Part shown: positions 33,567 to 62,165 of the stretch, piece after piece
Position numbering within the stretch: the stretch's first letter is position 1
How the letters are laid out: every line of letters starts with the position of its first letter
IMG/VR virus record: IMGVR_UViG_3300020578_000011
Source of the DNA: a virus
Strand: one strand, 5' to 3'
DNA: 64,000 nucleotides
The notes under the pieces: model-generated
What the model saw: the letters and a program-made list of their open reading frames with translations, nothing else
Database searches by the model: none
Told to the model about the DNA's origin: nothing
Made by a program: the position numbers and the translations under genes

Positions 33567-33576
33567 AAGAATCGGA
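33567..33576 (-). promoter_or_regulatory. TCCGATTCT motif (putative early/middle promoter)
   Basis: 28 nt upstream of ATG 33538. Confidence 0.7.
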
Positions 33577-33577
33577 T

Positions 33578-34348
33578 CTAACCTATCATTTTTAAAATAA
33601 CTGAAAGATCTTTTTCATACATATGCATCGAATGAGCTATATGAGTATATGAGCCTGTTTTTAAATTTGGATATTTATCTAATAATTCTAGAGTCATTTT
33701 ATTTTGTAAATAAACAAAAAATGGAACATCATAAACTGTTCCTCTTAATACATCATTGCTGCGCATTACCGCGGTCATGTTTAAATTTTCATTTCTTATA
33801 CTAAAAGAAACATGCATCGTACATGGAAAATCTTTATTACCAATCCACGCATGATAAGGTTTGTTTATTCTCATTACTGCTTGTCTTGAATCTTTGTCAT
33901 TCAATAAGCTCTGTTTAGCCCATTCCCATGGGGTTCTTTTAAACGAAGACATATCACATGCAAGAGTATTTGGATATGATTCATACGAGCCGTCGCCTTC
34001 GCTGTGATCTTTCATTGTTAAAAAACCATAGTTAGAATTTACAGTACCATCTGGATTTGCTATTTTATTCCAAAACTTACTTATCTTAGTGGCCGACTCC
34101 ACTGATCTAAAACCAGACAGATACCATTCCATTTCTTTTATAGTATAGTCTTTTATTATTGTATTTCTTTCTAAATCATTTGTAATAATAGATTCTGAAG
34201 TAGGTTTTTTTACTTCAAAAATATAATTAGATATTTCTCTAATCAATTGCCCACGTGGAGACGACAGATTTTCATAATTTTCAACTATATTTTTTAATAA
34301 ATCTAAATACGCCTCACTAGTTGTCGTATATGTTAATTTGTTATTCAT
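33578..34348 (-). CDS. Thymidylate-synthase-fold enzyme, predicted dCMP hydroxymethyl/methyltransferase
   Basis: DSRQA, DFPCT (catalytic Cys), MRSND...G..YD (Asp at the E. coli ThyA N177 position), H.AHSMH.Y. Confidence 0.8.
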   Translation of the reverse strand: MNNKLTYTTTSEAYLDLLKNIVENYENLSSPRGQLIREISNYIFEVKKPTSESIITNDLERNTIIKDYTIKEMEWYLSGFRSVESATKISKFWNKIANPDGTVNSNYGFLTMKDHSEGDGSYESYPNTLACDMSSFKRTPWEWAKQSLLNDKDSRQAVMRINKPYHAWIGNKDFPCTMHVSFSIRNENLNMTAVMRSNDVLRGTVYDVPFFVYLQNKMTLELLDKYPNLKTGSYTHIAHSMHMYEKDLSVILKMIG

Positions 34349-34350
34349 GA

Positions 34351-34542
34351 TTACTTCTTGATATTAAGATTAGCCGTTGAAGAACAAAGATTATCGTATG
34401 CTTCGTTTAAAATATATGATGCTTTTGTTATTTCATAATTATACTCTTGAAGAACAGCTGCTCTTCCATATACATATCCACATGTGAAGATAAGAGACGT
34501 ACATATAACAATAATCCAGTTTCTCTTATCTCTATTACTCAT
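34351..34542 (-). CDS. Small membrane-anchored protein
   Basis: N-terminal hydrophobic helix. Confidence 0.5.
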   Translation of the reverse strand: MSNRDKRNWIIVICTSLIFTCGYVYGRAAVLQEYNYEITKASYILNEAYDNLCSSTANLNIKK

Positions 34543-34909
34543 CTTGAGTTTCCTTCAGTATTTTTTCTATTTGATGATGCCAAACTCCATAACCATATCT
34601 TTTTTTTGTTATTCTTTTTAAGAGTTGACCGCCTCGATTAAAGATATGAGTAAAAATAAAAGTAGATTCTTTTACAGAGAGTCCACTTGGAGTTTTGTGA
34701 TTTGGATTGTATTTTTGCAAAGCAACAAAAACCTCAGTCAGTAAATACTGACGAATATCTTTTATTGTAAGACCAGAGTTTCCAAGAAAAACATCTTGTT
34801 TATCTTTGTTAAGAGATGCCTCTCTCCAATTTTTTATAACTGATTTTCTAATATATGAATCAACCATTGATGTGTATTTTTTCACATCTTCATCGGTTAT
34901 TTTTCTCAT
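34535..34909 (-). CDS. Second sigma region-2-like small protein
   Basis: Y..MV...I.....D..Q......F.ALQKYNP.....STFIF..I.NR pattern. Confidence 0.5.
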   Translation of the reverse strand: MRKITDEDVKKYTSMVDSYIRKSVIKNWREASLNKDKQDVFLGNSGLTIKDIRQYLLTEVFVALQKYNPNHKTPSGLSVKESTFIFTHIFNRGGQLLKRITKKRYGYGVWHHQIEKILKETQDE

Positions 34910-34910
34910 T

Positions 34911-35420
34911 TTAGCCGCCGTATTTTTTATTTAAATCTTTGCACAATTGTAAAAGAACTTTTTCATTCATTTTTTCTTTTTGATTTGTTTCATATATGGC
35001 AATAATTAGATTAATTAATTCCTGATTGTTCGTTAAACAATGTTCCATTGAGCCGTATAAAGATAGATGTGAAGCTTGTTTATTGATTAGATTAACAAAA
35101 TAAACTCTTTTATCTAATCTAGAACCTTTTTGAGAAGCTTTCATGTCATCGAGCTGACTTGTCAATGAGGTTAGGGCATGGATCATTGTTTTGATTTTGT
35201 TTACAGAATATTCATTGTTTTCTGTTTGTAATTGTATATTTTTACGTACTAAATTATAAAAATTTTCACTAATATCAAACTGATCTGGCATTGCGTTTAT
35301 AAAAGCACTGTTTTTAGGATAAAAAACATTTTTAGTAGAAGACAAAACCATGACTCTGGATGGTGGTACTATTTTTTCTACAATTTTAAGTAATTTTTCT
35401 AAATAGACAAAATTGCTCAT
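34911..35420 (-). CDS. Hypothetical protein
   Basis: 169-aa ORF; ATGA overlap. Confidence 0.55.
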   Translation of the reverse strand: MSNFVYLEKLLKIVEKIVPPSRVMVLSSTKNVFYPKNSAFINAMPDQFDISENFYNLVRKNIQLQTENNEYSVNKIKTMIHALTSLTSQLDDMKASQKGSRLDKRVYFVNLINKQASHLSLYGSMEHCLTNNQELINLIIAIYETNQKEKMNEKVLLQLCKDLNKKYGG

Positions 35421-36172
35421 AATACCTCCTGAATAGAATAAATCGCTTTACCTGAGTGCGTCATTAATTTAAATCTAGTAAGATTAGTGTAGGCCGCAAG
35501 ATCTCCTGTTTTTACATAACTATCACACCATTCTGCTATAGATTTCATTACTTCATATTTTCTTATTCTAAATAAATTATTTTGTATATTTACATATATA
35601 CCTTCGCGCAATTGAAATCCTAGTGATCTATTGTCTTTACTTCTTGTTGAAGAAGCAATTCCAAAAATATCACACAATTCTAATATTCTTTTTCTTTCAT
35701 AATATTTATAGTCAAAATAATTCCATCTATAAAAATGTTGCAATCTATGCATTGCATACTCTAATAGATCCTCGTTATCTATAGAGGTTTTTTTCTTTTT
35801 AAGAAAAATATCATGACTTGATTCTCCGGTAAAGATATCTATTTCTGTGTCTTTATGTAATTCTATTTCAAACAATAATTTAAAACGAACTGGATCGACC
35901 ACATAATCACTTAATTCTGTTAAAAATTTACTTGGATTAGATGCTTTCATAATTGCAATTGTTTCAGTAATTGCGCTATTGCAACTGTGTAGCATGTCTA
36001 TAGAAGCGTATCTAGGATCGGTTGTTGCAGATTTTAAAATATGTTCTTTTGATAATTTTACAATATCTGGAAAATTAGAATATAAACTTTCTACATTGTC
36101 AACAAATGGCTCTGTTGCTTGGCTAATGAAATCAAGGTTTTCATAAAAATCATCTTTATAAATAGAATTCAT
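35417..36172 (-). CDS. Hypothetical protein
   Basis: 251-aa ORF; SD GGGAGGG; early motif upstream. Confidence 0.6.
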   Translation of the reverse strand: MNSIYKDDFYENLDFISQATEPFVDNVESLYSNFPDIVKLSKEHILKSATTDPRYASIDMLHSCNSAITETIAIMKASNPSKFLTELSDYVVDPVRFKLLFEIELHKDTEIDIFTGESSHDIFLKKKKTSIDNEDLLEYAMHRLQHFYRWNYFDYKYYERKRILELCDIFGIASSTRSKDNRSLGFQLREGIYVNIQNNLFRIRKYEVMKSIAEWCDSYVKTGDLAAYTNLTRFKLMTHSGKAIYSIQEVL

Positions 36173-36192
36173 ATGCCCTCCCTGGAAAAGAA

Positions 36193-36202
36193 TAGAATCG
36201 GA
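36193..36202 (-). promoter_or_regulatory. TCCGATTCTA motif
   Basis: 20 nt upstream of ATG 36172. Confidence 0.75.
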
Positions 36203-36204
36203 AA

Positions 36205-36498
36205 TTACTCCGGCATTGAATATCCTAGTTCTTTAGCTTTCTTCATAGAAAGCGAACCTCGTTCTTCTCCAGGTCTTTTTGTTCTTTCAACGCCAAATTT
36301 ATCAAAATTTACATAACGACCTTCTAATTCAACTAATTGATATACTGTTCCAAATTGATCTTGAAAATGATGATTAACACCTTGTTGTTTTACTAACTCT
36401 TTAATTATTGATTGATATTCTTCAAAAAATCTTTTTACTTCTTCTTTTTTTCTATCCAATTCAATCAACCTTAAATGAAGCTCAGTCAAGTGATTCAT
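36205..36498 (-). CDS. Hypothetical protein
   Basis: 97-aa ORF. Confidence 0.6.
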   Translation of the reverse strand: MNHLTELHLRLIELDRKKEEVKRFFEEYQSIIKELVKQQGVNHHFQDQFGTVYQLVELEGRYVNFDKFGVERTKRPGEERGSLSMKKAKELGYSMPE

Positions 36499-36716
36499 TA
36501 ATCAAAATCTCCCATTATTAGTTGAACAATGTCTAATTCATGGTCTTGCTTTTTCTCAGCAGGGCCATATTGACCTGTGTCTAAAAACCAATACCCGCCT
36601 TGTTTTGGTTTACTAGGTTCAATAATTATTCCATATGCATATATAGAACTTTGATCAAATATTTCGACTTCTATTCCATTGCGACATTCATATATGCCGC
36701 CCTGATCAATTTTCAT
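36498..36716 (-). CDS. Hypothetical protein
   Basis: Y..RNG..V.I...W...G.Y.....DI pattern of small phage proteins. Confidence 0.55.
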   Translation of the reverse strand: MKIDQGGIYECRNGIEVEIFDQSSIYAYGIIIEPSKPKQGGYWFLDTGQYGPAEKKQDHELDIVQLIMGDFD

Positions 36717-36717
36717 T

Positions 36718-36957
36718 TTATGCTTCTTCTTTTCTTGCTTTTAAATATAAATTTGCAAGATTTACTGCTTGTTCTAGTGAAAGAATACTAGTGTCATCGC
36801 GATCAACTGACCATTCTAAATCTGTACATAAAAACTCATCTGTTTCATTTTGAACAACATACATATATTTGTTTGGTCTAATTTTTCTGATCCAAATGCC
36901 ATGTTTTGAATCAACAAGAAATTCTGTAGCAATTTTAATCATTAATTTCGTATCCAT
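36718..36957 (-). CDS. Hypothetical protein
   Basis: ATG 36957 after AGGAG. Confidence 0.55.
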   Translation of the reverse strand: MDTKLMIKIATEFLVDSKHGIWIRKIRPNKYMYVVQNETDEFLCTDLEWSVDRDDTSILSLEQAVNLANLYLKARKEEA

Positions 36958-36965
36958 AGAATCTC

Positions 36966-37289
36966 CTATATAACAAACCAATCATTTTTCTTCTTATCAA
37001 CTATTTCATATAGTTCTTCTTTTGATATGTCCATTATCTTGGAAGCAAAATCAATAGAGATCATATCTTTAGATACCATTCTAATTAAAATTTCATTTCC
37101 AGATGGGAATGGAATCGGATCTAACTGGTTTTGTTCTAAAAGCCAGTTGTGCATTGTCCATTTTATTTCAAAATTCTTTTTATCATCAATATTGGCAGAT
37201 GACCACAGTGCTATGGCATACCATTTTTTGCATTGCTCATATAAGATTTTATATGAACGTTTTTTATTCTTCTTTTTCTGAGTCGTCAT
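36966..37289 (-). CDS. Hypothetical protein
   Basis: 107 aa; TCCGATTCTA at 37321-37330 upstream. Confidence 0.55.
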   Translation of the reverse strand: MTTQKKKNKKRSYKILYEQCKKWYAIALWSSANIDDKKNFEIKWTMHNWLLEQNQLDPIPFPSGNEILIRMVSKDMISIDFASKIMDISKEELYEIVDKKKNDWFVI

Positions 37290-37599
37290 CAGATCTTACA
37301 ACCCTTAATTTAGAATTGTTTAGAATCGGATCTAACTTTTCTCTATTTATTTTTTCTAATGGTTTTATTTTTTTTGAATTATTTTTCATCTCTGGAGATT
37401 TGCATAAATCATAAATAGCAGTTGGAGAATATCCTTTTGCCCTAAGTATCTCTGTGGTTGCAGTTGTATATAGTTTTTCGTATTTAATCTTCCAATCATC
37501 ATCGCTTTTTATTTGACCATATAAAAAAGACACTCTGGCAACACATCCGATAATAATAAGTAAACATGTCACACTGAAAATAAGAGATAATAAAACCAT
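37264..37599 (-). CDS. Membrane-anchored hypothetical protein
   Basis: N-terminal TM helix; SD GGGAGG. Confidence 0.6.
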   Translation of the reverse strand: MVLLSLIFSVTCLLIIIGCVARVSFLYGQIKSDDDWKIKYEKLYTTATTEILRAKGYSPTAIYDLCKSPEMKNNSKKIKPLEKINREKLDPILNNSKLRVVRSDDDSEKEE

Positions 37600-37649
37600 A
37601 AAACCTCCCTTATTTGAGATTATACTTTTTATATTTTATATAAGTTAAA

Positions 37650-38126
37650 TTATTTGTTTTTTAATTTATTTTTCCAGTTTTTTAGTTTTTTCTCATCAAC
37701 GTCGTGACGACCTCGATTTAAATTTTCTGGAACTGCTCTAACATTTGATGATTCATAGCCTTTTCCATTGTCTTTTCTATCTGGGCTAAGTTTTTGTCCA
37801 GTTTTACTTTCTGCATTTTTTATTTTATTAACTATTTCTTTTCTAGTTCCATTGCCCCTAGTCGTGCCCTTTGCAGTCGGATGGCCTCCAGCTTTGCCTT
37901 TTTGACGGCGTAGGGCATCATCTGCTTTTGTTTGCGCCCTTTGCCAATGTCCTGGCGTTTTCTTAGCCCTAGCTAACTTATCTAAACAAGCACGACATCT
38001 TCCAGATGGGTTTGAAGAATCCGCAGACTTGCCTCCACAACGAGGGCAGGATTTTGATAGAATTTGTAAAGCTAACAAATCTATTTTTGAAAAAGATTCT
38101 TCTTCAGATGTTTCTATATTGTTCAT
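37650..38126 (-). CDS. Zinc-finger + His-Me/HNH-like (S.DR.D...GY...NV...N) protein
   Basis: CPRC..CRAC; LSPDRKDNGKGYESSNVRAVPENLN; late-type box TGGTATTAT upstream. Confidence 0.6.
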   Translation of the reverse strand: MNNIETSEEESFSKIDLLALQILSKSCPRCGGKSADSSNPSGRCRACLDKLARAKKTPGHWQRAQTKADDALRRQKGKAGGHPTAKGTTRGNGTRKEIVNKIKNAESKTGQKLSPDRKDNGKGYESSNVRAVPENLNRGRHDVDEKKLKNWKNKLKNK

Positions 38127-38166
38127 ATTGTGCCCCTATTAAATAATACCACACGCTATCGGTGTA

Positions 38167-38805
38167 TCATTTACTAGCAAGAACTATTTGGCATATATGC
38201 TCAAGTCTCTCTATATGCTCAAAAGCAGCCCACGGATTTGGGCCTACTGCAACAACGCCATGTCTATCTAGGCCGCATATATCAACAGTTGGGTTCTTGA
38301 ACCAGTCAATGTCACCCCCGTCTGATTCGATTAATTGGCTCTGATTTGTCATGTAGGCATAAGTATACTGAGCTAGTTCTTTTGATATGGCTGGTTTAAA
38401 AGGCACGTTCTCACCAACGATGGTGTATCTGTTTATTTCTGGGAATAAAGAAGCTATGTTTTTCAGGCTATAACCTGAATACATAGCTGCTATTATATAA
38501 GTGGGATGAAGATGCACAACAGCTCTGCATTCGTTAGAAGATCTCTGAAGAAGTTCGTGCATTTCTAATTCGCCACTTGGTTTGTCAGAGTCTGACACTG
38601 TTACGTGGTGTTTTTTTTGAGTTTCATCTATTTGCCATTTCATTTTAATAACAGATTCTGGCTGTATCGTCGGTTTTCTAACTCCAGACGGAGTTATATA
38701 AAGTACTTTTGAATTTTTACGATGCAAAGAAATATTACCATCTCTAGTTGAGATCCAACCTCGTTTATAAGCTTCTCTCATTACATCGCCAATTGCGGTT
38801 AGCAT
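38167..38805 (-). CDS. Class II aldolase/adducin family protein
   Basis: DGNIS, ITPSG, KPSGELEMH, VVHLHP, HGVVAVG. Confidence 0.9.
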   Translation of the reverse strand: MLTAIGDVMREAYKRGWISTRDGNISLHRKNSKVLYITPSGVRKPTIQPESVIKMKWQIDETQKKHHVTVSDSDKPSGELEMHELLQRSSNECRAVVHLHPTYIIAAMYSGYSLKNIASLFPEINRYTIVGENVPFKPAISKELAQYTYAYMTNQSQLIESDGGDIDWFKNPTVDICGLDRHGVVAVGPNPWAAFEHIERLEHICQIVLASK

Positions 38806-38814
38806 AATCTTTCC

Positions 38815-39825: not shown

Positions 39826-39837
39826 TTTGCCTTTCTA

Positions 39838-42026: not shown

Positions 42027-43058
42027 TTATCCCCTGTTTTCTAATACTTTTACAAATCCCTTCCAAGTGTTTGTACTTACTGCTAAATTCAACCTAATTT
42101 GATTAGGAAATCCGCCGCATTTAGAACCGGGTGTTGATTTTATATTTAATTCGTTTAATTTGTAAAATATAGAATTGTCATCAGTCGACACCCAGGCAAA
42201 CATACCTGGCGCTGCATCATATTGCCATTTATGTAATTTACACATTTCTAATAATTGTTTTTTTCTATATTTTAGAGTTTCTTCTATTTGTTTTAGAGCT
42301 TTTTCCCAATTTTTATTATCTAAAACATTAGACATTATTTCTTCTGTTTTTAATTGAGTATCAAAACCAAGTCCACCAGATTCATATTCCATATAATCGC
42401 ATATTTCGTTATACAAATCTTCATCATCTACAAGTGCCCATCCAAAACGAACACCGCAATGTCCTGTCATTTTTGATAAACTAAAAATCATTGCTTTTTT
42501 AGGAGCTGTTGTTATTTGTTTTAATGCATTTTCATAAGTATCTTTTTCCATATACCATGGCCATAAATATACAGCGTCATACCAATCGCTCGACCTTTCG
42601 CCCGTTTGAAGTTTTCCATCTGGATTATTAGGATATGTTATGAGTTTTGTGTAAAAATCGTTGTTTAAACGATTCGAATCGTTATCAAGATGATTCGAAT
42701 CGTTGTTTAACTGTTCTATAAGCAGTAATTCAGAATTCTTCATCGAGGACATAACTGGAATTCTAAACCAATAAGGGCTTGTTATTTTTACTTTTTTATT
42801 TATGTGAAAAAAACAACTTATTAATTGACTAGCTCCACTGCCTATAACTATTTTGGTAGTGGGTTTTATTAAACCTGGATGAAATTTTTCATGAATTTTG
42901 TATATTGTTTCTACTACAAAAGAAAGTGGACCATTTTTATTATAAGGCATTCCAGACAAAATATCTGACTCTAAGAATGAATCTTGAATATATTTTTCTA
43001 AAATTTCTTTTAAAAGATCTGCGCTACCTACACCCAGGTCGATCATAAATGTCTCCAT
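42027..43058 (-). CDS. PLP-dependent fold-type-I enzyme, alliinase/TAA1 tryptophan aminotransferase-like
   Basis: IVIGSGASQL, PNNPDG, D..Y.WP.Y, FSLSKMTGHCGVRFGWALV.D (PLP Lys), FAW, IRLNL. Confidence 0.8.
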   Translation of the reverse strand: METFMIDLGVGSADLLKEILEKYIQDSFLESDILSGMPYNKNGPLSFVVETIYKIHEKFHPGLIKPTTKIVIGSGASQLISCFFHINKKVKITSPYWFRIPVMSSMKNSELLLIEQLNNDSNHLDNDSNRLNNDFYTKLITYPNNPDGKLQTGERSSDWYDAVYLWPWYMEKDTYENALKQITTAPKKAMIFSLSKMTGHCGVRFGWALVDDEDLYNEICDYMEYESGGLGFDTQLKTEEIMSNVLDNKNWEKALKQIEETLKYRKKQLLEMCKLHKWQYDAAPGMFAWVSTDDNSIFYKLNELNIKSTPGSKCGGFPNQIRLNLAVSTNTWKGFVKVLENRG

Positions 43059-44459
43059 TCATTTTGCACCTTTAGGTATTTGAATAGTGTCGCCCAAACG
43101 AGAAATTGGATGATCAGACGAGCCGCCACGAGAAATTATCCACAAAACTTGCGGAAAATTTTGACCAGGTTTTAACCATTGCTCAAACTTTACGTCGGAA
43201 TAATAACCATCTGTTATTACGATGTTTAAATCTGATTTAGTATTTAACATGTGAGTTAGAGAATCTGACAAACATGTTCCACCCATTTTTACTTCTTTTT
43301 TAAGAGGCTCTCTATCGCCTATTTTATACTTAGATGAAAAATAATTAACATCAGAAAACAAATTTATGGAACAACGTCGATTGCCTACTTTAAGAAATTC
43401 ATCAACTGTGTCTAAAAATTCATTCATTTCTTCTTGCGATATCGAACCAGACGTGTCGATGTACATTGCCAACTTTGGCAAGTCTCCTTCTTTTGTTCCG
43501 GGTGCTTTATTGCCAAATCTACGAGATTTTCTTGCCCATGAATATTTTCTATCAATACCCGTTGCCGATCTCTTAATTGCAGCTAAAATTAATTGACGAT
43601 AATTTAATTCAGCTTTTCTTATTTTAATGTCTTCAAGAAGATCTTTGATACTAGATGGGAGATCGTCCCAGCTCATTGATTGCTTGACCATTGCGCGTTT
43701 TACAAGATCTTCTGTTGCATTTAGCACATCAGATTCTTCTGCATTGGCATGCCATTCATGACTGTCAAATTGCCTAGGCGCATTCTTTGCATCTCCATCT
43801 TGACCATCTTTATTATCTTCATTGTCTTCTTCTTCGTATAGTTCCATTAATTTCTCAAAATAAAACTCCATTGTCTTTCCATTTTGCCATGGAGTTTTTT
43901 TCTTACTTTTTTCATCTTCATCATAAAAATTCGATGGCAACATAGCGTGACCACAGCATAAGTCATTGGAACATTGAGCTCCTTGCTTCATCTCTTCTAA
44001 AGGAGGACATTGTCTACAACCTTGCGGTAGATTTTTAATCAATGTATTAATCGACATGTCGCCTGCGATATTTAACAAGCGTCTTTTATGATCACTTACC
44101 TTCATAAAAGGAACACGAATCAAATGTTTGTGAGTTATGTGACAGATTTCATGAATTAAAACAGCAACTCGCTGCTCAGGCGACAAAGCTTTGCAAAAAA
44201 AACGCGGATTTATAAACATCTCATATCGTGCGTTGTCTGGACTAAAACTAACACCCGCTGTTGGAACCATGTATGAATATTGAATATTCATCAACGAAAG
44301 CATAGCACCGTAAAATGTATGATATTTGTTTACTTCATAAAGTGCGGTTGCTAGACATTGTTTTTTTAGCTCTTCTGATGTGTCATCTTTTGCAACCATA
44401 ACTAAAGCTTTTTTCTTTGTAACGCTATTGTCAGCGGTTGCAACTGCCTGAGTAGACAT
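43059..44459 (-). CDS. Metallopeptidase-like (HEXXH) + VWA-like protein (DUF2201-type), partner of the MoxR AAA
   Basis: VPTAGV, HEICH, NIAGD..IN, IDTSGSIS (MIDAS), GGT, ITDGY. Confidence 0.85.
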   Translation of the reverse strand: MSTQAVATADNSVTKKKALVMVAKDDTSEELKKQCLATALYEVNKYHTFYGAMLSLMNIQYSYMVPTAGVSFSPDNARYEMFINPRFFCKALSPEQRVAVLIHEICHITHKHLIRVPFMKVSDHKRRLLNIAGDMSINTLIKNLPQGCRQCPPLEEMKQGAQCSNDLCCGHAMLPSNFYDEDEKSKKKTPWQNGKTMEFYFEKLMELYEEEDNEDNKDGQDGDAKNAPRQFDSHEWHANAEESDVLNATEDLVKRAMVKQSMSWDDLPSSIKDLLEDIKIRKAELNYRQLILAAIKRSATGIDRKYSWARKSRRFGNKAPGTKEGDLPKLAMYIDTSGSISQEEMNEFLDTVDEFLKVGNRRCSINLFSDVNYFSSKYKIGDREPLKKEVKMGGTCLSDSLTHMLNTKSDLNIVITDGYYSDVKFEQWLKPGQNFPQVLWIISRGGSSDHPISRLGDTIQIPKGAK

Positions 44460-44484: not shown

Positions 44485-44494
44485 TAGAATCGGA
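44485..44494 (-). promoter_or_regulatory. TCCGATTCTA motif
   Basis: 25 nt upstream of ATG 44459 (SD GGAGG). Confidence 0.75.
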
Positions 44495-48446: not shown

Positions 48447-48510
48447 TAGAATCGGATGACATAGCTATAAGAATATTGACATTTCCTCCTTCAATAGAAA
48501 TAGAATCGGA
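48447..48510 (-). promoter_or_regulatory. Tandem TCCGATTCTA motifs (48447-48456, 48501-48510), each followed by AAGGAGG
   Basis: Direct reading of the intergenic region. Confidence 0.75.
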
Positions 48511-48576: not shown

Positions 48577-49392
48577 GTGATGAAAAAAGTTATTAGTCTA
48601 TTTAGTACGTTTATTAGTTTAGCTTTTCCGCTTGTTTCAAGTGCTTCCTCGCCACAAGAGGTTCTTGTTCTCGATAAAGATAATCATATTCTTTTAAATG
48701 GAGAAATAAATTCAAAAATGTCAAGTGAGTTTATTTCTCAAATGTTGAAAACAAAATCTGACAATTTAGTTGTGTACATAAATTCTCCCGGTGGCTCTGT
48801 TATCTCTGGTATGAAAATTGTTCAAACTGCAAAAGATATTAAAGCAAATAATAGTAATTTAAAAATAACATGCTATGTTGACTTTGCGGCATCAATGGCT
48901 TTTGTAATAACACAAACAATATGCGATGAGAGAATAGTTGGTGAAACCTCTGTTCTAATGCAGCATCAAGCAACTTTTGGAGTACAAGGAAGAACCGGTG
49001 AAATAGCTGCAAGAACTGGTATGGTTCTTTCTATTTTAGATGTTATGGACTCTGCTCAGGCAAAAAGATTGAAAATCACAAAAGATGAACTTCGTAAAAA
49101 ATCAAAAGACGAATGGTGGCTAGTTGGTAAAAATGCAGTAAAAAACAACGCAGCAGATAAAAAAGGCTCTGTTGTTTGCACTGCGGAATTGGTTGATTTA
49201 ATTAAAAAAGAAACTCTAATAATATTGGGAGCAAAAATAGAATTATCATGGTCTAGTTGTCCGTTGGTTGAATATCCAGTTAAAATTGAAGTAAATAGAA
49301 AAGATATTTCACCAGAAGAAAAAACTAAAATAGAAAACAAAATCTATGAATCTATAGAAAATAGAAAAAAGATATTTACAACAAGTCCTTAA
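48577..49392 (+). CDS. clpP: ClpP-like serine protease with N-terminal signal peptide
   Basis: YINSPGGSV, AASMA (Ser), MQHQ (His), DEWW (Asp); MKK-hydrophobic-SSA leader. Confidence 0.8.
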   Translation: MMKKVISLFSTFISLAFPLVSSASSPQEVLVLDKDNHILLNGEINSKMSSEFISQMLKTKSDNLVVYINSPGGSVISGMKIVQTAKDIKANNSNLKITCYVDFAASMAFVITQTICDERIVGETSVLMQHQATFGVQGRTGEIAARTGMVLSILDVMDSAQAKRLKITKDELRKKSKDEWWLVGKNAVKNNAADKKGSVVCTAELVDLIKKETLIILGAKIELSWSSCPLVEYPVKIEVNRKDISPEEKTKIENKIYESIENRKKIFTTSP

Positions 49393-49982: not shown

Positions 49983-50747
49983 ATGTCTGATAAAAATAAA
50001 CTTGATGAACTTGTATCTACTGGAATAGATTGGGATAAGCGTAGAATCTATTTTGGAAGTATAGATTCGGGAGAGGATGGTGGTGAATTTTCTTGGCATA
50101 CTGTAGAAAGAGCTATCAGAGCTATTCATAAAATGAGTGAAATAAATATAAATCCGATTGAAATTCACATGAATTCCGAAGGCGGCAATCCATATGACAT
50201 GCTTAGACTCGTTGATGAGATTGAAGCAGCGCCTGTTCAAATAAAATTCATAGGCGGAGGTATGATTGCTAGTTGTGCAACATGGGTTATGGCCGTATGT
50301 GATCATAGGTATCTCCATAAAAACACAACTGTATTGGTTCATGATGGGAATGACGGAATATCTGGAACACATACAGATGGTCAAATTCAAGCACAGCATT
50401 TGAAAAAAATGCAGGATAGACTTTATGATATTTATGAATCAAATTCAAGAATGCCAAAGTCTTTTTGGCAAGATTTATGCCAAAGAGATTTATATTTAAA
50501 GGCAGAAGAAGCTGTTTTATTAGGTTTGGCTGATGAGATTATAGACTCAAGAAAACGTGGTAATGTAAGAAAATCTAGAACAAAAAGACTAAACGGACAA
50601 CCAAACGCAAAAGAAATGCAAGATCTCATAAAAGACCTTTATAAAAGAATAGAAAGAAGTCGAGTACCAAAGCTTGCAATGAATGAAAGTAAAGAAGAAT
50701 TTGATGATTCTTTAACTAATCCTTTTGAGGCTCAAGACAACCAATAG
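49983..50747 (+). CDS. clpP: ClpP-like protease, cytoplasmic
   Basis: RRIYF, MNSEGG, IASCA, LVHD, RDLYL.AEEA..LGLADEI. Confidence 0.85.
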   Translation: MSDKNKLDELVSTGIDWDKRRIYFGSIDSGEDGGEFSWHTVERAIRAIHKMSEININPIEIHMNSEGGNPYDMLRLVDEIEAAPVQIKFIGGGMIASCATWVMAVCDHRYLHKNTTVLVHDGNDGISGTHTDGQIQAQHLKKMQDRLYDIYESNSRMPKSFWQDLCQRDLYLKAEEAVLLGLADEIIDSRKRGNVRKSRTKRLNGQPNAKEMQDLIKDLYKRIERSRVPKLAMNESKEEFDDSLTNPFEAQDNQ

Positions 50748-50994: not shown

Positions 50995-51209
50995 TTTTTG
51001 CTCCTTGTTAATAACAGTTTTAAATAACTTAGAACAGGCACTAAGGATTTGGCTTGGTCTTTATATTTTGAAGAGCCCATGCTAGACAAACTGTTGATGT
51101 CTTTTTCAAGACGATCAATGGCGGCTTCTAAATCTAAGCAATTAGGAACATCGGATTTATCTATTAAAATATATTCTCCAAGACTTTTGTTTTCAGGTTT
51201 TTGATTCAT
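50991..51209 (-). CDS. Hypothetical protein
   Basis: 72-aa ORF. Confidence 0.5.
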   Translation of the reverse strand: MNQKPENKSLGEYILIDKSDVPNCLDLEAAIDRLEKDINSLSSMGSSKYKDQAKSLVPVLSYLKLLLTRSKK

Positions 51210-51510
51210 ATTCTCTGATACCAGATGGGGTTATTATTGTTATCTTACATCTTTCTACGGGGAGTATTGTCCATTCGTATTCAAGTAAATCTATTTTTCC
51301 ATCTTTAGATGCTTTTTCTAAAGCGAGAAGTAGCTCTTCCTCTTTTTCTCTATTTGAACAGATTTGATTAAATGTAGAATCGGAAAAAACTCCAGAAATT
51401 TTTAATTCATTCGCTATATGAGCAACAGATACTGAATATTTTGTTATATTTTTAATTACTTGTAATTTTCTTAGACTCTTCTTCGAAGGTACGTTTTCCG
51501 TGTGTTCCAT
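51193..51510 (-). CDS. Hypothetical protein
   Basis: ATG after GAGG. Confidence 0.55.
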   Translation of the reverse strand: MEHTENVPSKKSLRKLQVIKNITKYSVSVAHIANELKISGVFSDSTFNQICSNREKEEELLLALEKASKDGKIDLLEYEWTILPVERCKITIITPSGIREYESKT

Positions 51511-51682
51511 AGTCAACCTCTAAACAATAGTTTATACCAGAAAAAGAAGACATGAACCTGATGGCCCATTCTAACGCCTCGTGTTCTTCGTCGAATCTTA
51601 ACTCGGAAAGGCTGAAGCCTTTATCGGAGACGATAGCCCATGTATTTAGGTCCTTTGTCCTTTTTAGGACTATTCGTCTCAT
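51452..51682 (-). CDS. Hypothetical protein
   Basis: ATG after AAGGA. Confidence 0.5.
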   Translation of the reverse strand: MRRIVLKRTKDLNTWAIVSDKGFSLSELRFDEEHEALEWAIRFMSSFSGINYCLEVDYGTHGKRTFEEESKKITSN

Positions 51683-53262: not shown

Positions 53263-53306
53263 AACAAATCTCCATTGTTGTTAATGATCATAGATTCGGA
53301 TATTGC

Positions 53307-56724: not shown

Positions 56725-56899
56725 TTAAATCTTCCTCCATCGAATCCACCGTGTCCTTTAAATCCCATAAACAATTGGACACCTTAACCATATTGGATTT
56801 CAACTCCCCATCTGCCGATGGGTTGCTTGCAAAAAAATCGGTCATCATTTCTAACATCTTAGATATAAGATAACTTTCTTTTACTTTTTTCATTTCCAT
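56681..56899 (-). CDS. Hypothetical protein
   Basis: 72-aa ORF. Confidence 0.5.
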   Translation of the reverse strand: MEMKKVKESYLISKMLEMMTDFFASNPSADGELKSNMVKVSNCLWDLKDTVDSMEEDLNDSEDSGIQEEELW

Positions 56900-57240: not shown

Positions 57241-57282
57241 ATAGATATCCTCCAACAAGGATATATTGGAATCGGAAAACAC

Positions 57283-57558
57283 TTACAATGTTTTAGAACT
57301 AAAACCTAAAAACATAAAAAGTCTTTTTAACAAAGAAGGAGGTTCTACTTCAGTTTCGTACATTTTACTTAAATGTTTCAATGAAGCAAGTTCTAATGAA
57401 AGACTAGTTTCAACAAACTCAATCGCACGCGTGTGTTCAACTGAGCCATCGAAATTTGATACCAAAAACTGTAATCTTTCTAAAGTTTCTTTTAAACTTG
57501 ACCTAGAAGAAGAAATTGACTTAAGCAATTCAGATTTGAGAGATACTTTATTTTCCAT
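57283..57558 (-). CDS. Hypothetical protein
   Basis: SD GGAGG. Confidence 0.55.
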   Translation of the reverse strand: MENKVSLKSELLKSISSSRSSLKETLERLQFLVSNFDGSVEHTRAIEFVETSLSLELASLKHLSKMYETEVEPPSLLKRLFMFLGFSSKTL

Positions 57559-57778
57559 CGATATGTCCTCCGTTTTTGATTTGTTTTATGTTTTCATTCA
57601 TAAAATTTGCTTTTGTATAATATGCAATTTGCTTTACTTCACTTTCGCTATAAAAAGAAGGTTGAATCATATGTTTGTTTTTAGACGATTTTTTTGCTTT
57701 AGATGCAACATTATCTATATAGACAATTGCGATCCAATAAAGTACCATAAATAAAAATATATACAACACTATATCCAT
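57548..57778 (-). CDS. Small membrane protein
   Basis: N-terminal TM helix. Confidence 0.55.
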   Translation of the reverse strand: MDIVLYIFLFMVLYWIAIVYIDNVASKAKKSSKNKHMIQPSFYSESEVKQIAYYTKANFMNENIKQIKNGGHIDGK

Positions 57779-58023
57779 TATTTTTTCCTACATTGAATAT
57801 GTCCAAGATACAGGCCTTTATTATCTAATAAAGAAGTAATTGTTTTGTTTTTTTGTGAACAGTTAACTATTATCTTTCCAGATTCACAAGCCAAAATAAC
57901 AATTGGTTTAACTGGTCTAACTTCCACGGTGGGAGAGATACATCTTTCGAGATGAACAGAAACATCTGCAGAATAAGGACTACTCATTGCTATTGTAAAA
58001 GTATGAATTAATGTTGTTATCAT
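57778..58023 (-). CDS. Small, possibly exported, Cys-containing protein
   Basis: Hydrophobic N-terminus; 4 Cys. Confidence 0.5.
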   Translation of the reverse strand: MITTLIHTFTIAMSSPYSADVSVHLERCISPTVEVRPVKPIVILACESGKIIVNCSQKNKTITSLLDNKGLYLGHIQCRKK

Positions 58024-58262
58024 TTTTGTTTTGAAACCTCATTCATTGAAATAGCAAGACTTTTTGCTCCCGCGGCAGCACCTGCAATGTATCTGGGTAT
58101 GCCACCTAACCACATTGCAAAAAGTATACTTGAGTCTATGTTAAACAAAACAAATAAAAGAACGGATAAAAGACCATCTATTAATAGATATTTGCCTAAA
58201 TTATGTAGTATTAAATTTTTCCAAAAACCTATTATTATTTTCTGCAGACCATCTTCATCCAT
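58020..58262 (-). CDS. Small membrane protein
   Basis: Two hydrophobic helices. Confidence 0.55.
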   Translation of the reverse strand: MDEDGLQKIIIGFWKNLILHNLGKYLLIDGLLSVLLFVLFNIDSSILFAMWLGGIPRYIAGAAAGAKSLAISMNEVSKQK

Positions 58263-58556
58263 TTAAGAACCTCTGTTTTGAATTGACAACATTTTTTTAT
58301 TGTTCCAATATTTTGCATTTTTTACTGTTCTAAGAACATCATTTAAATAATTAACAAAAACTTTATTATTATTATCTTTTGCAATAGAAACAATAGCTGA
58401 TATTGATTCTTTATCTCTAAAAGATTTGACAATAAATTTATCATTTATCAATCTAACTTTTAGATTTTCTTTTTGGATCTTTTCAATTTGTTTATTTGAC
58501 AATTCAAACATTTTGTTATTTTTCATAGAAATATCCAAATAACAAATTTTTGTCAT
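58263..58556 (-). CDS. Hypothetical protein
   Basis: SD GGGAG. Confidence 0.5.
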   Translation of the reverse strand: MTKICYLDISMKNNKMFELSNKQIEKIQKENLKVRLINDKFIVKSFRDKESISAIVSIAKDNNNKVFVNYLNDVLRTVKNAKYWNNKKMLSIQNRGS

Positions 58557-59059
58557 TACATTTCTCCCCAAAGAGATATTACATTATTTTTAGAAACACA
58601 TTGTCCATCTTTCATTTTTAATACAGCTGGACCGATTATCGTAATTGGAGCAAGCATAAATAAAACATCATTTACATGAGAGTGTACAGCTATCCAAATT
58701 GGAGTAGAGTTTTCTACTTTATAAGTAAACAAGTTAATTGGATTCTTTACATCAATAAAGACACATTTATTATCCAACATCCTGAGATCTAAGATGTTGC
58801 TTACCAATGAATCATACATAGGCGCACATGATTTGCACATCAAGTACATTGAATTATTAGTAACATCATGACACAATGTTGCTATTTCTAGCACGCATTC
58901 AAACGCGTCCATATAAAGCATCTCTGCTTCTACAGAGGCAATTTGTTCAGTGTTTTTACACACACTTAACAACTCGCCATAGGTTATTGTATCGTTTACA
59001 GATATCACCGTGTGCATTTCGTATTCGTTACTGGATTTATCAATTGCATTTTCGAGCAT
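58556..59059 (-). CDS. Hypothetical protein
   Basis: 167-aa ORF. Confidence 0.55.
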   Translation of the reverse strand: MLENAIDKSSNEYEMHTVISVNDTITYGELLSVCKNTEQIASVEAEMLYMDAFECVLEIATLCHDVTNNSMYLMCKSCAPMYDSLVSNILDLRMLDNKCVFIDVKNPINLFTYKVENSTPIWIAVHSHVNDVLFMLAPITIIGPAVLKMKDGQCVSKNNVISLWGEM

Positions 59060-59244
59060 GTAGTTGTTTCCCTAAGTAGTGTTAATCTTGCATAATTAAT
59101 ATAAGAACAATCTAAAGTAATTGTATTGCACTCATACACAGAGTTTACGCTTTCATCTATTAAAATTAGATGATTTCCACATACTTGTTTTATATAGCAT
59201 AAGCTTAGAAACGAGATGGTTAAATAAATATTTATGTTTTTCAT
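59005..59244 (-). CDS. Small protein with signal-like N-terminus
   Basis: SD GGAG; hydrophobic leader. Confidence 0.45.
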   Translation of the reverse strand: MKNINIYLTISFLSLCYIKQVCGNHLILIDESVNSVYECNTITLDCSYINYARLTLLRETTTCSKMQLINPVTNTKCTR

Positions 59245-59267
59245 TGTTTCTCCATGTATTTTACAAA

Positions 59268-59891
59268 TTATTTTTTCTGACTTAAATCTTTAAAAGTATC
59301 TTCATGAGTTAGAATTAAATCTAAATCATGTTTTTCATTTGGTAATCTTTTAATATCAAAAAGTTTTTTAACTAAAATTTTCCAATAACTACCGTAATCT
59401 TCTTCTTCCATCATGTATGGATTCATAAGATCTAAAGAATTTACTGTAGTATGATCTTGACCAAGTAGACAATGACCAAGTTCATGAAACACCAAACCTT
59501 TCATAGAAAGAGAATCCACATCCGCAAAGCCCTTTAAAATCTGAACTGTTCTAGGAACAGACAGAGTTATTCCATAAAAACATCTTCCAACTACATTTGG
59601 GCTATCATTGAAGGCATCGACATATTCAACTTTATTTAAAGCAAGAAGCCTTTTTTCACATTGAATAGTAAACTCACCGCCAACTAAAGAACACATTGAA
59701 ACGAATTCAACTACGTGTGAATATAATTCTTTATCAACTTTTACATTAGTAAATAAATGATTAATCATTCTTTGTTGAGTGTTTTCTTTATCATATTTTG
59801 TTGAAGGCGGAGGTGATACTGTTTTTTCATCATCCAATGATCCACATGCTGTTAAAAACAAACTTAGAATTATAATTGTTTTTATTTTCAC
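59268..59891 (-). CDS. Lipoprotein zinc metalloprotease (metzincin-like)
   Basis: LTAC lipobox; HELGHCLLGQDH zinc motif; LMNP Met-turn. Confidence 0.85.
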   Translation of the reverse strand: MKIKTIIILSLFLTACGSLDDEKTVSPPPSTKYDKENTQQRMINHLFTNVKVDKELYSHVVEFVSMCSLVGGEFTIQCEKRLLALNKVEYVDAFNDSPNVVGRCFYGITLSVPRTVQILKGFADVDSLSMKGLVFHELGHCLLGQDHTTVNSLDLMNPYMMEEEDYGSYWKILVKKLFDIKRLPNEKHDLDLILTHEDTFKDLSQKK

Positions 59892-59894
59892 AAA

Positions 59895-60281
59895 TTAAAT
59901 CTCCAATAGCTTTTTTTCTAAAACATTATTAATTGCCTGATCAACGTGACATGGGGCAAAGGTTTTGATTTTATTCTTTTTGTCTTTATCTCTCATTGTT
60001 ATAGAAACAGCATATATGGTGTTTTTCCATTCATCAGTGTCTTTCCACCAATTTCTGTAAAAAACATAATTTATTTGCACCGAATTGCCATTGCCAGTCA
60101 GTATTAGTTTTTTAGTAAATGTTCTTTGTTCATACTTTTTTTCTTTCAAATCTGATTTAAAATAAGATACTTTTGCTAATAATTCGTTTAACAAATCTGA
60201 CTCTTTGACTTTTAAAAGTAATGAAATATATTTTACTTCTAAACTGTTTATTTTTATATGACATCTGTGATGTAGTTTCAT
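59895..60281 (-). CDS. Hypothetical protein
   Basis: SD AGAGG; TTCGATTCTA at 60302-60311. Confidence 0.55.
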   Translation of the reverse strand: MKLHHRCHIKINSLEVKYISLLLKVKESDLLNELLAKVSYFKSDLKEKKYEQRTFTKKLILTGNGNSVQINYVFYRNWWKDTDEWKNTIYAVSITMRDKDKKNKIKTFAPCHVDQAINNVLEKKLLEI

Positions 60282-60315
60282 TTTACAACCTCTTTTTCAA
60301 TTAGAATCGAAAAGA

Positions 60316-60513
60316 CTATATTAATTCTATTTGTTTAAGAAGTTTTTTAAGACTTTCAATTGCAGATTCTGGTGATCTTGCAGATATTTGAAAATTTGTT
60401 AATGTTTTTTTATAAGCTGTATAATTAGCACTACATGTTGCAGACGCTATCCACTCATTTGTATCTTCATCAAAGAAAATACTAATACTTATGTCTTCTT
60501 TACTTATTCGCAC
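60316..60513 (-). CDS. Small HicB-N-like hypothetical protein
   Basis: I..DE....W.A......SPE.AI..LK pattern. Confidence 0.4.
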   Translation of the reverse strand: MRISKEDISISIFFDEDTNEWIASATCSANYTAYKKTLTNFQISARSPESAIESLKKLLKQIELI

Positions 60514-60914
60514 TTTATCTCCATAGCGTAACCATTTTCAGTAGTATATGCAAATTTTATTATTCCAAATTTAGACGCAAGATTCTGACAACCGCTGCAT
60601 GGATATGCTATTGCTGGTCGTCCGTCTTTTGATTTTCTATATGTAACCATTATTAATTTTCTTCTATCAGATTCAGATAAATTAAGAAGAAAATTTCTAG
60701 CTTTTGCAATTGCATTTGCTTCAGCGTGCACGGTCACTGGCCTTCCATATATATCATGATTGCACAGTGGGTGAGTTTTTGTTATATTGTTACAGCCAGT
60801 AGATACAAGATGATTTTTAAAAAATAAAGCAGCACCAATTTTATATTGATCGTGTTCAGCTCTTTCGCTGGCATCGATTGCTGGTTTAAACACTCTTGGC
60901 AACAAGTTTTCCAT
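60504..60914 (-). CDS. Cytidine/dCMP deaminase-family protein (second deaminase)
   Basis: IGA.L......G.N..KTHP, HAE..AI, PC..C, YTT..G. Confidence 0.85.
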   Translation of the reverse strand: MENLLPRVFKPAIDASERAEHDQYKIGAALFFKNHLVSTGCNNITKTHPLCNHDIYGRPVTVHAEANAIAKARNFLLNLSESDRRKLIMVTYRKSKDGRPAIAYPCSGCQNLASKFGIIKFAYTTENGYAMEIKCE

Positions 60915-60982
60915 ATCTCCTCCACTCACGCCAAAGCATACTCTTAGTGCCTGATAGTTGGCTTAGCCTACCATCATAAAGA

Positions 60983-61058
60983 TGGTAGGCCCGGGTGGAA
61001 TTGAACCACCTACCAACTGCTTATAAGGCAGCTGCTCTGACCGGTGAGCTACGGGCCT
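60983..61058 (-). tRNA. tRNA-Ile, anticodon TAT (UAU), with encoded CCA
   Basis: AGGCCCG acceptor / GCTC D-arm / GCTGC-CTTATAA-GCAGT anticodon arm / GGTGG-TTCAATT-CCACC T-arm / CGGGCCT-A-CCA. Confidence 0.9.
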
Positions 61059-61098
61059 ATTTATCTTTTACTCATTGAAGTAATCAATAAGTAATTCA

Positions 61099-61401
61099 TT
61101 AAGCATAAATATCTTCAGGTTCTTGAAACCAAAAATCTTCTTCTACTGCTTTATAATATTCGTTGTACATATCTTCAAGACAATCATGATCTTCTGCATA
61201 AACCACATTGCCTGCATTGTATAGTTCTTCGATGCCATCTGTTCTTAAGACTTCATTTCTAATCTCATCCAAAAATCTTGCACTTGCCTGGTCAATGTGT
61301 CCGCTTGTTACATAATCTTGAAATTTATTTTCTGGATTATAAGGAACACACAATGTTCTTGTTGCATAGCTCATTAATTCATAAGCAATACTTCTTTTCA
61401 T
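61099..61401 (-). CDS. Hypothetical acidic protein
   Basis: SD AAGGAGG; TCCGATTCTA at 61427-61436. Confidence 0.65.
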   Translation of the reverse strand: MKRSIAYELMSYATRTLCVPYNPENKFQDYVTSGHIDQASARFLDEIRNEVLRTDGIEELYNAGNVVYAEDHDCLEDMYNEYYKAVEEDFWFQEPEDIYA

Positions 61402-61460
61402 ATATCCTCCTTCTTATGAAGAAAAATAGAATCGGATTTTACTAATGAGCTAATAATGAA

Positions 61461-61583
61461 TTATTTATTTACTGGATTTTTTATAGCAATTTTTTTGTTA
61501 CCAATTTTAACAACTACTACGTTGATTTTGCCTTCTTTTTTAGAATCTTGGACAATGCCTTTTCTAAATTGCTGACGTGCCAT
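61461..61583 (-). CDS. 40-aa basic peptide (not in ORF track)
   Basis: MARQQFRKGIVQDSKKEGKINVVVVKIGNKKIAIKNPVNK; SD AAGGA. Confidence 0.5.
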   Translation of the reverse strand: MARQQFRKGIVQDSKKEGKINVVVVKIGNKKIAIKNPVNK

Positions 61584-61592
61584 TTTGTATCC

Positions 61593-61817
61593 TTAATAAG
61601 TTAAATTTAATAATTTACCAATCATAACTAAAACAGGATGCTCTGCTTGCATGCAGACTGGGACTAAAAAACCAGGAATCCCAGGAAAGTCATCTATACA
61701 TTTCTCTGCAGCATGTAGTAAAAATTGATAACCCACATACGCCATGAGTTTTGTAAAAACAATTCCAGATAAAAAGCATAATACATATTTTTTCAAAGGT
61801 CTCATTAAGATCTCCAT
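61593..61817 (-). CDS. Small membrane protein
   Basis: Hydrophobic helices. Confidence 0.5.
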   Translation of the reverse strand: MEILMRPLKKYVLCFLSGIVFTKLMAYVGYQFLLHAAEKCIDDFPGIPGFLVPVCMQAEHPVLVMIGKLLNLTY

Positions 61818-61882
61818 ATATCTAATTCAAATAAATTATACTTTCTATATCTATGTGTTTTGGGTAGTCTTTCATGGTAGAA

Positions 61883-62041
61883 TTAACTTTTTAAATTACC
61901 ACGTTTAAGACGATGGCGAATTAGATTATATAGAAATCTACTTATTTCAACTGCAAAACCGATAAAGATCATGTATAAACAAACTTTTAACAGTAAAAAA
62001 GATATTCCCACAAAGTTTATAATATAAACAAAAACTTCCAT
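61883..62041 (-). CDS. Small hydrophobic membrane peptide (52 aa, not in ORF track)
   Basis: MEVFVYIINFVGISFLLLKV...; SD GAGGG. Confidence 0.45.
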   Translation of the reverse strand: MEVFVYIINFVGISFLLLKVCLYMIFIGFAVEISRFLYNLIRHRLKRGNLKS

Positions 62042-62049
62042 AAATACCC

Positions 62050-62112
62050 TTAATATATGGTAAAAAAATAAACTATTACCAATATGAGTCCTATTAAAAA
62101 CAACTCGTCCAT
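62050..62112 (-). CDS. 20-aa single-TM peptide
   Basis: MDELFLIGLILVIVYFFTIY, directly downstream of the motif at 62126-62135. Confidence 0.4.
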   Translation of the reverse strand: MDELFLIGLILVIVYFFTIY

Positions 62113-62125
62113 ATTTATCTCTTAT

Positions 62126-62165
62126 AAGAATCGGAAATATATTAAACCATTTGCTATGATATATT
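62126..62165. promoter_or_regulatory. Back-to-back divergent promoters: TCCGATTCTT (- strand) and TGATATATT (+ strand)
   Basis: Located at the strand switch between the early block and the collagen gene. Confidence 0.65.

Follow-up and report, generated by a model that had tools for sequence, protein, structure and literature searches.

A strand-specific box resembling a sigma-28 -10 element in a phage replication block, with a mini-sigma protein as its candidate reader

The 64,000 nucleotides (nt) of viral DNA analysed here, which belong to the IMG/VR record IMGVR_UViG_3300020578_000011 and are referred to throughout as the window, raise the question of what kind of signal is carried by a short sequence, TCCGATTCTA (hereafter, the box), that recurs on the minus strand just ahead of gene starts. 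The window covers part of a large phage genome, with plus-strand structural genes at 1-30 kb and a minus-strand block at 30-62 kb that encodes both ribonucleotide reductase (RNR) subunits, two thymidylate-synthase-type proteins, a dCMP deaminase, an ATP-dependent ligase and a MoxR-like ATPase. The box is real and conserved. On balance, it probably represents a class of phage promoters composed of a -10 element only, read by the host core RNA polymerase together with a phage sigma factor of minimal size (mini-sigma).

Census, position and conservation of the box

A search with the pattern TAGAATCGGA, allowing at most one mismatch on both strands and counted against 100 shuffles, found 14 places in the window, where chance would give 3.28 +/- 1.86 on both strands together (approximately 1.6 per strand) and where none of the 100 shuffles reached 14. 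Thirteen of these places read as TCCGATTCTA on the minus strand (seven exact, six with a single mismatch) and lie between 33567 and 62135, while the other one, at 32522, has the opposite orientation. The structural block at 1-30 kb contains no copy at this threshold in either orientation. Indeed, the thirteen copies listed in a single orientation by the first-pass annotation of this DNA were all recovered, and its statement that no copy is oriented with the plus-strand structural genes also stands. The 8-base core, TCCGAWYC, was counted 12 times in sense and once in antisense orientation in the window, with approximately 1.5 and 1.4 copies expected under a first-order Markov model, and a strand difference as large as this one was reached by 0.5% of 6,720 position-permuted patterns. 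With two mismatches, ATGATATAAT occurs at chance level in the A/T-rich DNA of the window, and a search for weaker boxes (7-8 matches out of 10, CGA kept) ahead of boxless genes gave none that was convincing.

Eleven copies stand ahead of minus-strand start codons, at distances from box end to start codon that were measured as 13, 25, 20, 26, 28, 18, 22, 25, 31, 20 and 28 nt, that is, over the range of 13-31 nt reported beforehand. Most of them are followed, before the start codon, by a GGAG-type Shine-Dalgarno site whose spacing from the box is variable (approximately 8 to 20 nt). The two other copies (37110 and 51375), already described as intragenic, are both located within open reading frames (ORFs). 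Three gene starts that had been corrected on the basis of the box (33538, 44459 and 57240) each gain a Shine-Dalgarno site, and the layout at 44459 and 57240 is also found in a relative (G001). The box can thereby sharpen the annotation of gene starts and operons in this phage clade.

Most boxes are found in gaps of 21-59 nt, 2-7 nt past the stop codon of the preceding co-directional gene, so that a terminator or an upstream element would not fit in the non-coding DNA. Furthermore, three boxes (the tandem pair at 48501 and 48447, and the copy at 62126) head minus-strand units whose upstream neighbour is a gene of the other strand, and a promoter is therefore required at these places. The position of the box relative to start codons is compatible with that of a -10 box. 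Some boxless gaps of the minus-strand block display sigma-70-like hexamers (e.g. TTAACT-18-TATAAT before 37599), and host-type promoters thus probably exist alongside the box class. A generic scan for sigma-70 promoters over 29-64 kb found no excess over shuffles, and a scan for terminators found no excess in 44-64 kb and a modest excess in 29-45 kb (13 versus 6.4 +/- 2.8).

Relatives were gathered via the ATPase protein and via the mini-sigma family described below. The closest of them, a contig of 34 kb (G001), is collinear with the window from 41.6 to 62.7 kb, at a nucleotide identity of 63-78%, and has a box at every place common to both contigs. Over eight orthologous pairs of boxes, the core is 0.97 identical, versus 0.42 for the 30 nt upstream and 0.45 for the 20 nt downstream. 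In more distant contigs of other base composition, the core is conserved and the remainder of the box varies: it takes the form TCCGAWCCTA in G004 (52% G+C) and mostly TCCGAATCAA in G005 and G006 (47% G+C). The box-to-start distance in the relatives is mostly 11-45 nt, and the ATPase ortholog is preceded by a box in three diverged lineages, likewise at a unit head after a strand switch, even though the surrounding sequence is unalignable. A megablast search of 8 kb of the window against GenBank phages gave no match, and a cultured relative was not found.

The strand bias of the core is also found in the relatives, with sense:antisense counts of 9:2 in G001, 12:0 in G004, 14:2 in G005 and 11:1 in G006; contig by contig, 0.15-0.5% of the 6,720 permuted patterns show strand differences as large. 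Pooled over five contigs, the count is 58:6 (binomial p 9e-12), a value that overstates independence since G005 and G006 are partly the same sequence. Antisense copies are scarce: none was observed in G004 for approximately 8 expected (1.25th percentile), one in G006 and two in G005 for approximately 4.5-5.6 expected. This scarcity fits selection against a start signal acting at the DNA level, and is suggestive rather than strong.

Nature of the signal and its candidate reader

In the open complex of Pseudomonas sigma-28, the -10 box reads (-15)GCCGATAA(-8), in which -15/-14 form the extended -10, domain 2 reads -13C and -12G, and the A at -11 is flipped out (PMC12784957). The phage box matches this element at five of the eight positions (CCGAT), with a T at -15 and YC at -9/-8. 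In four contigs, no informative position was found ahead of the box, which agrees with the earlier remark that the upstream sequence is not conserved, and TAAA at the sigma-28 -35 spacing is not enriched (3/11, 2/11, 0/12 and 0/7 sites). Judged by its sequence, the box looks like a sigma-28-type -10 element standing alone.

A family of proteins that could read such an element is encoded by the relatives. These free mini-sigmas are proteins of 123-154 residues, composed of sigma domain 2 only and found on phage contigs of up to 157 kb. Searched against solved structures, the family profile matches Streptomyces WhiG (E-value 6.2e-11), Escherichia coli FliA (4.6e-10), Pseudomonas FliA (2.5e-9) and Aquifex FliA (6.7e-5), whereas other sigma groups are matched at E 0.014 (RpoS) or worse. 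The 130-amino-acid (aa) member encoded by G004 matches the FliA_WhiG model of NCBIfam at 5.9e-10, in an alignment confined to positions 1-90 of the 224 in the model and scoring 39.3 bits for a cut-off of 189.6; on these alignments, the mini-sigma is a derived fragment of the FliA/WhiG family and not a member in the curated sense. As mini-sigmas are devoid of domain 4, the part that reads the -35 element, they fit promoters without a -35 element. A tblastn search of 50,697 GenBank phage records with the mini-sigma, and with the protein P0035 discussed below, gave no match.

All the readable contigs that have a mini-sigma gene (G004, G005 and G006) also have the strand-biased box. In these three contigs, the free mini-sigma gene stands between those of the reductase and the ligase, on the strand opposite to the genes with boxes. 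These three mini-sigma genes carry a GGTATATAAT hexamer and a ribosome-binding site of their own, which suggests early expression by the host polymerase and, consequently, that the boxes form a middle class. In the window, the corresponding slot, between the RNR and ligase genes, contains two unrelated small ORFs; a search for a sigma gene there, and in the first genes that follow the boxes, found none.

The candidate reader of the window is instead P0001, a protein of 244 aa (3386-4120, plus strand) whose gene lies within the head-gene cluster and overlaps the preceding gene by 17 nt. Residues 1 to approximately 140 are predicted to comprise sigma domain 2 and the start of domain 3, of the FliA/WhiG type, and there is no domain 4. 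P0001 matches the Pfam family Sigma70_r2 weakly (E 0.012) and the general sigma-70 model TIGR02937 at E 1.5e-5 (24.7 bits for a cut-off of 42.9), and does not match the NCBIfam FliA_WhiG model. Its first 100 residues and the 130-aa ORF of G004 are reciprocal best matches, and the histidine at FliA position 82 is invariant across the mini-sigma family, P0001 included. A word-indexed search with the N-terminal 115 residues gave nothing at similar lengths, and an exhaustive search gave seven clusters only. The profile of P0001-type proteins matches, among solved structures, FliA (6e-9 and 9e-9) and WhiG (3e-8), followed by RpoH (0.044); its alignment extends into the first helices of domain 3, as far as FliA residue 130 approximately, after which the tail is unrelated. 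A structural model of residues 1-125 (predicted local distance difference test, pLDDT, 82) has almost exclusively sigma factors among its top listed fold matches, and matches sigma-28 with a probability of 1.00 and a root-mean-square deviation of 3.1 over 88 columns.

The low-complexity tail of P0001 ends in KPKLIIRR...RIDAAK. The same tail ends the head-module ORF at 6644-7198 (KPKIVIRR) and a 502-aa protein occupying the same slot in G002, and, being common to head-module proteins, points to a sigma domain grafted onto a head-module tail in P0001. The peptide KPK[LIV][IV]IRR (window 4022-4045 and 7148-7171, plus strand; L018 340-1848) closes three otherwise unrelated head-module proteins, and may be a capsid-targeting or processing tag.

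In the mechanism proposed, a phage sigma factor reduced to domain 2 and derived from the FliA/WhiG (sigma-28) group would retarget the host core RNA polymerase to the box, whose core TCCGAWYC, followed by W and A, would serve as a -10-type element without a -35 element. With CCGA set at the sigma-28 positions -14 to -11, transcription would start approximately 6 nt past the 10-mer, giving leaders of approximately 8-26 nt in the window and typically of approximately 20-40 nt in the relatives, which would carry the Shine-Dalgarno site. With eleven such promoters, the minus-strand block of 32 kb, which contains the genes of nucleotide metabolism, those of the ligase and the ATPase, and many small ones, would fall into units of 0.7-7 kb. 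From sequence comparison, the box would thus act as a promoter in DNA, with transcription starting at the predicted position and the protein encoded at 3386-4120 as a putative reader. The description of the box as a single-element, strand-specific promoter, put forward in the first-pass annotation, is favoured by all the indirect tests, namely the footprint of the box, the unit heads, the lack of a -35 element, the lack of an RNA fold, and the likeness to sigma-28 together with the domain-2-only sigma-28 derivatives of the clade.

The main alternative is that the box acts in RNA, as a cleavage site for a host or phage endoribonuclease or as the site of a translational regulator, in the short gaps of long polycistronic transcripts. 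Indeed, as most boxes lie a few nucleotides (2-7) past a co-directional stop codon, read-through transcripts would include them; strand specificity is explained equally well; and a TATACT hexamer is present 11 nt upstream of the box at 48501, where a host-type start would place the box at the 5' end of the RNA. However, no stable or shared fold was found around the box (mean z -0.4 over 11 sites), and the distance to the Shine-Dalgarno site varies from approximately 8 to 20 nt. Such a role also leaves unexplained the match to the sigma-28 -10 core and the co-occurrence with mini-sigmas, and provides no reason for the scarcity of antisense copies (zero, one and two in G004, G006 and G005, for 4-8 expected); it is considered improbable.

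A second alternative is that the box is an activator or sigma-appropriation site comparable to the T4 MotA box and bound by a phage protein, with the host primary sigma factor using an A/T-rich -10 element located downstream. A TATAAT-like hexamer is often present 8-11 nt past the box in the GC-richer relatives (G005 19512, 20223 and 20928; G004 37597). However, this hexamer abuts the Shine-Dalgarno site, so that a start 7 nt further on would fall in or past that site, and no such hexamer is conserved in the window, where start codons located 13-31 nt past the box would have transcription begin at the edge or in the interior of the coding sequence. No MotA/AsiA-like protein was detected either, in scans of family libraries that covered part of the window ORFs only. 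This arrangement is judged quite improbable. Finally, reading of the boxes by a host flagellar sigma factor (FliA/SigD), although the CCGAT core is common to the box and to the sigma-28 -10 box, is highly improbable, since the -35 TAAA is absent at the sigma-28 spacing, the 3' half of the box is TCTA, TCAA or CCTA versus ATAA, the base at -15 is T and not G, and the clade has a sigma-28-derived protein of its own without the -35-reading domain.

Several points weigh against a -10-only promoter read by a mini-sigma, and against P0001 as its reader in particular. The support is throughout positional and comparative, and the leaders predicted in the window are short (8-26 nt). P0001, the only FliA-like protein of the window, diverges more than any other member of its family (28% identity to the G004 protein), and a head-gene operon is an unexpected location for a protein that would read replication-gene promoters. 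Where E. coli FliA has Y70, R74 and R91, which contact the flipped -11A, -12G and the extended -10, respectively, the aligned residues of P0001 are H, T and A; the free mini-sigmas differ from one another there as well, which makes the residue argument weak either way. The set of FliA positions R74, D81 and R91 likewise varies among the free mini-sigmas, and decides neither for nor against P0001. Furthermore, the mini-sigma genes of G005 (42918-43250) and G006 (79666-80040) cannot be aligned at the DNA level, although their flanks are 99% identical and the two contigs have the same boxes. It looks as if one allele of the sigma gene had been exchanged for another, and this means either that specificity is robust to divergence or that the link between sigma factor and box is looser than assumed. 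Lastly, approximately 90 kb of the genome lies outside the window and might encode another reader.

A second sigma-like protein and the individual copies

A second protein with a sigma-domain-2-like fold, P0035 (124 aa; 34535-34909, minus strand), belongs to the unit that starts behind the 36193 box. Its sequence matches neither a family nor a solved structure significantly, and its match to the mini-sigma profile (hhalign) is weak (E 0.026) and covers regions 2.2-2.4. In an exhaustive structural search with its model (pLDDT 81), the ten best VIA-align matches are all sigma domain 2, with Z of 7.2-5.8: sigma-B has 7.2, sigma-70 and sigma-28 have 7.1, and a chain of the T4 gp45-dependent activation complex (7d7d_F) has 5.8. 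P0035 and its G004 and G005 counterparts have 68% identity. According to the model, it is probably, though not certainly, sigma domain 2-like, the Z values being modest for a domain this small and helical. It is possibly a second, late mini-sigma, and, from its location behind the 36193 box, a cascade leading from the box class to a late sigma factor is plausible.

An extension of this cascade, tentative and rather unlikely, involves the virion itself. P0001 would be produced late, packed via its KPKLIIRR-type tail and injected, in which case the boxes would be immediate-early and independent of host sigma factors, and the 36193 box would lead to P0035, which would lead in turn to the late genes, including that of P0001. 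If true, this would be a closed two-sigma loop passed between infections by the virion.

The copies are described below from the highest coordinate downwards, and are all on the minus strand. The box TCCGATTCTT (62126-62135) heads the entire minus-strand block, 13 nt before a mini-ORF of 20 codons, and its ortholog in G001 is at 11245; the gene upstream, collagen-like, starts at 62190 on the opposite strand. This mini-ORF (62050-62112, minus strand) encodes a hydrophobic peptide, MDELFLIGLILVIVYFFTIY, and a similar peptide start follows the orthologous G001 box. The collagen-repeat protein (62190-63998, plus strand) exceeds 600 aa and runs past the end of the window. An exact box (61427-61436) precedes ATG 61401 of a 100-aa ORF by 25 nt, with AAGGAGG in between (G001 ortholog at 11981). 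A boxless gap of 169 nt on the same strand (60929-61099) contains a perfect 9-bp hairpin, CCTACCATC ... GATGGTAGG, near the start of ORF 60504-60929, which may be a terminator or a regulatory stem. Further down, TTCGATTCTA (60302-60311) stands 20 nt before ATG 60281 of a 128-aa ORF, with the same TTCGATTC variant in G001 at 13935, and TCCGATTCCA (57267-57276) stands 26 nt before the corrected start, ATG 57240, with GGAGGA in between (G001 ortholog at 16936). The box TCCGAATCTA (53291-53300) follows the stop codon of the gene for the large RNR subunit by 7 nt and precedes ATG 53262 by 28 nt (G001 ortholog at 20756), and the unit that it heads contains the DNA ligase gene.

The exact box at 51375-51384 lies within ORF 51193-51516 with no start codon near. 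It is kept in G001 (22677), in the coding context GVFSDS, whereas G005 has no box at the corresponding position; this copy may be an internal promoter or owe its presence to the coding sequence by coincidence. The tandem pair is composed of two exact boxes (48501-48510 and 48447-48456) in a divergent gap of 152 nt between a ClpP gene (plus strand) and the MoxR-like ATPase gene (minus strand), the second being located 22 nt before ATG 48424 of the ATPase. G001 retains a tandem pair ahead of the ATPase gene (25531 and 25621), a box is kept ahead of the ATPase ortholog in L001 and in L002/L003/L006, and one is found in the form TCCGAACCTA in L004/L005; the gap ahead of the G004 ortholog is likewise short and divergent. 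Between the two boxes, a 5-codon ORF, MSIFL (48465-48482, minus strand), has a strong Shine-Dalgarno site and is not kept in G001. ClpP-family genes are present at 48577-49392 and 49983-50747 on the plus strand, inside the minus-strand block, and one of them has an ortholog at the same place in G005.

The exact box at 44485-44494, located 25 nt before ATG 44459 (corrected start of a gene encoding 466 aa; G001 ortholog at 29522), heads a unit of approximately 7 kb that runs down to approximately 37264. This stretch includes ORF 42027-43058, inside which AACGATTCGAATC is directly repeated in tandem, 21 nt apart (42674-42704, minus strand). Another exact box (37321-37330) lies in the 3' end of ORF 37264-37599, 31 nt before ATG 37289, and a copy reading TCCGATTCCA (37110-37119) lies within ORF 36966-37289, 30 nt before an in-frame internal ATG without Shine-Dalgarno site, at a place that no relative covers. 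The exact box that heads the unit containing the P0035 gene (36193-36202) stands 20 nt before ATG 36172. The last copy, TCCGATTCTT (33567-33576), is found 2 nt past a thymidylate-synthase-like stop codon and 28 nt before the corrected start, ATG 33538.

Within the structural block, an extended -10 type sequence, TGnTAYAAT, was found seven times on the plus strand between 862 and 25753 and never on the minus strand, all copies being inside this block. Three are just ahead of genes, at 862 (gene 907), 13335 (13375) and 14439 (14474), and the sequence may represent a late or host-type promoter class. The same block contains, at 15114-16340 on the plus strand, a gene whose product has an Mtd_N (major tropism determinant) domain.

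Comparison with known systems

The strategy of a minimal phage sigma factor combined with -10-only promoters is already known from T4 and phiEco32, and phage sigmas that retarget the host RNA polymerase to such promoters have been described in a few model phages (T4 gp55 and phiEco32 gp36). No description of a FliA-derived phage sigma factor or of CCGAT-type phage promoters was found in a search of a literature library with few subscription journals. The features that would distinguish the present system are (i) a flagellar-type sigma factor trimmed to its promoter-melting domain, together with a box that retains the CCGA core of the sigma-28 -10 element, (ii) box and sigma genes that differ among related uncultured phages, and (iii) a sigma gene that stands alone in the replication block in some relatives and is fused into a head-module protein in the phage of the window. 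Such a compact pair, of approximately 130 residues and a 10-bp box, could show how domain 2 alone reads a -10 element that is partly duplex and partly melted, and is a possible orthogonal promoter/sigma part.

Among other repeated phage signals, the start-associated sequences (SAS) of cluster K mycobacteriophages have a fixed position, 3-8 nt away from the start codon, and contain the ribosome-binding site. They resemble the box as short, conserved, strand-specific motifs repeated just ahead of many start codons, but the box stands at a variable distance of 13-31 nt and is followed by a separate Shine-Dalgarno site.

The middle and late promoters of phiEco32 and phage 7-11, tAATGTAtA, are read by the phage sigma factor gp36 (PMC4331800). 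As in the present phages, a single strand-specific block stands ahead of genes and is paired with a phage sigma gene; however, the block of phiEco32 and 7-11 is A/T-rich and unrelated to CCGAT. The gp36 protein of phiEco32 is a fuller member of the sigma-70 family.

The late promoters of T4, TATAAATA, are recognised by gp55 together with gp33 and the gp45 clamp (PMC2988020). The likeness lies in a lone -10-type element and in the use, predicted here, of the host core polymerase with a phage sigma factor that is essentially domain 2. In contrast, the sequence of the box is unrelated, the sigma lineage appears to be FliA-like rather than that of gp55, and the class described here would drive genes of replication and nucleotide metabolism, whereas the T4 class drives late structural genes.

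The closest likeness in sequence is to the promoters of sigma-28 (FliA/SigD/WhiG), TAAA-N15-GCCGATAA, with which the box has the CCGAT core in common, while domain 2 of the candidate reader is nearest to FliA/WhiG among solved sigma factors. The phage box differs by the absence of TAAA, by a T for G at -15 and by a conserved 3' half that reads YCWA where sigma-28 has AA. Of the domains of a full-length group 3 sigma factor (2, 3 and 4), the candidate reader lacks domain 4 and has, at most, part of domain 3. The targets differ as well, being replication genes in the phages and motility genes in the sigma-28 system.

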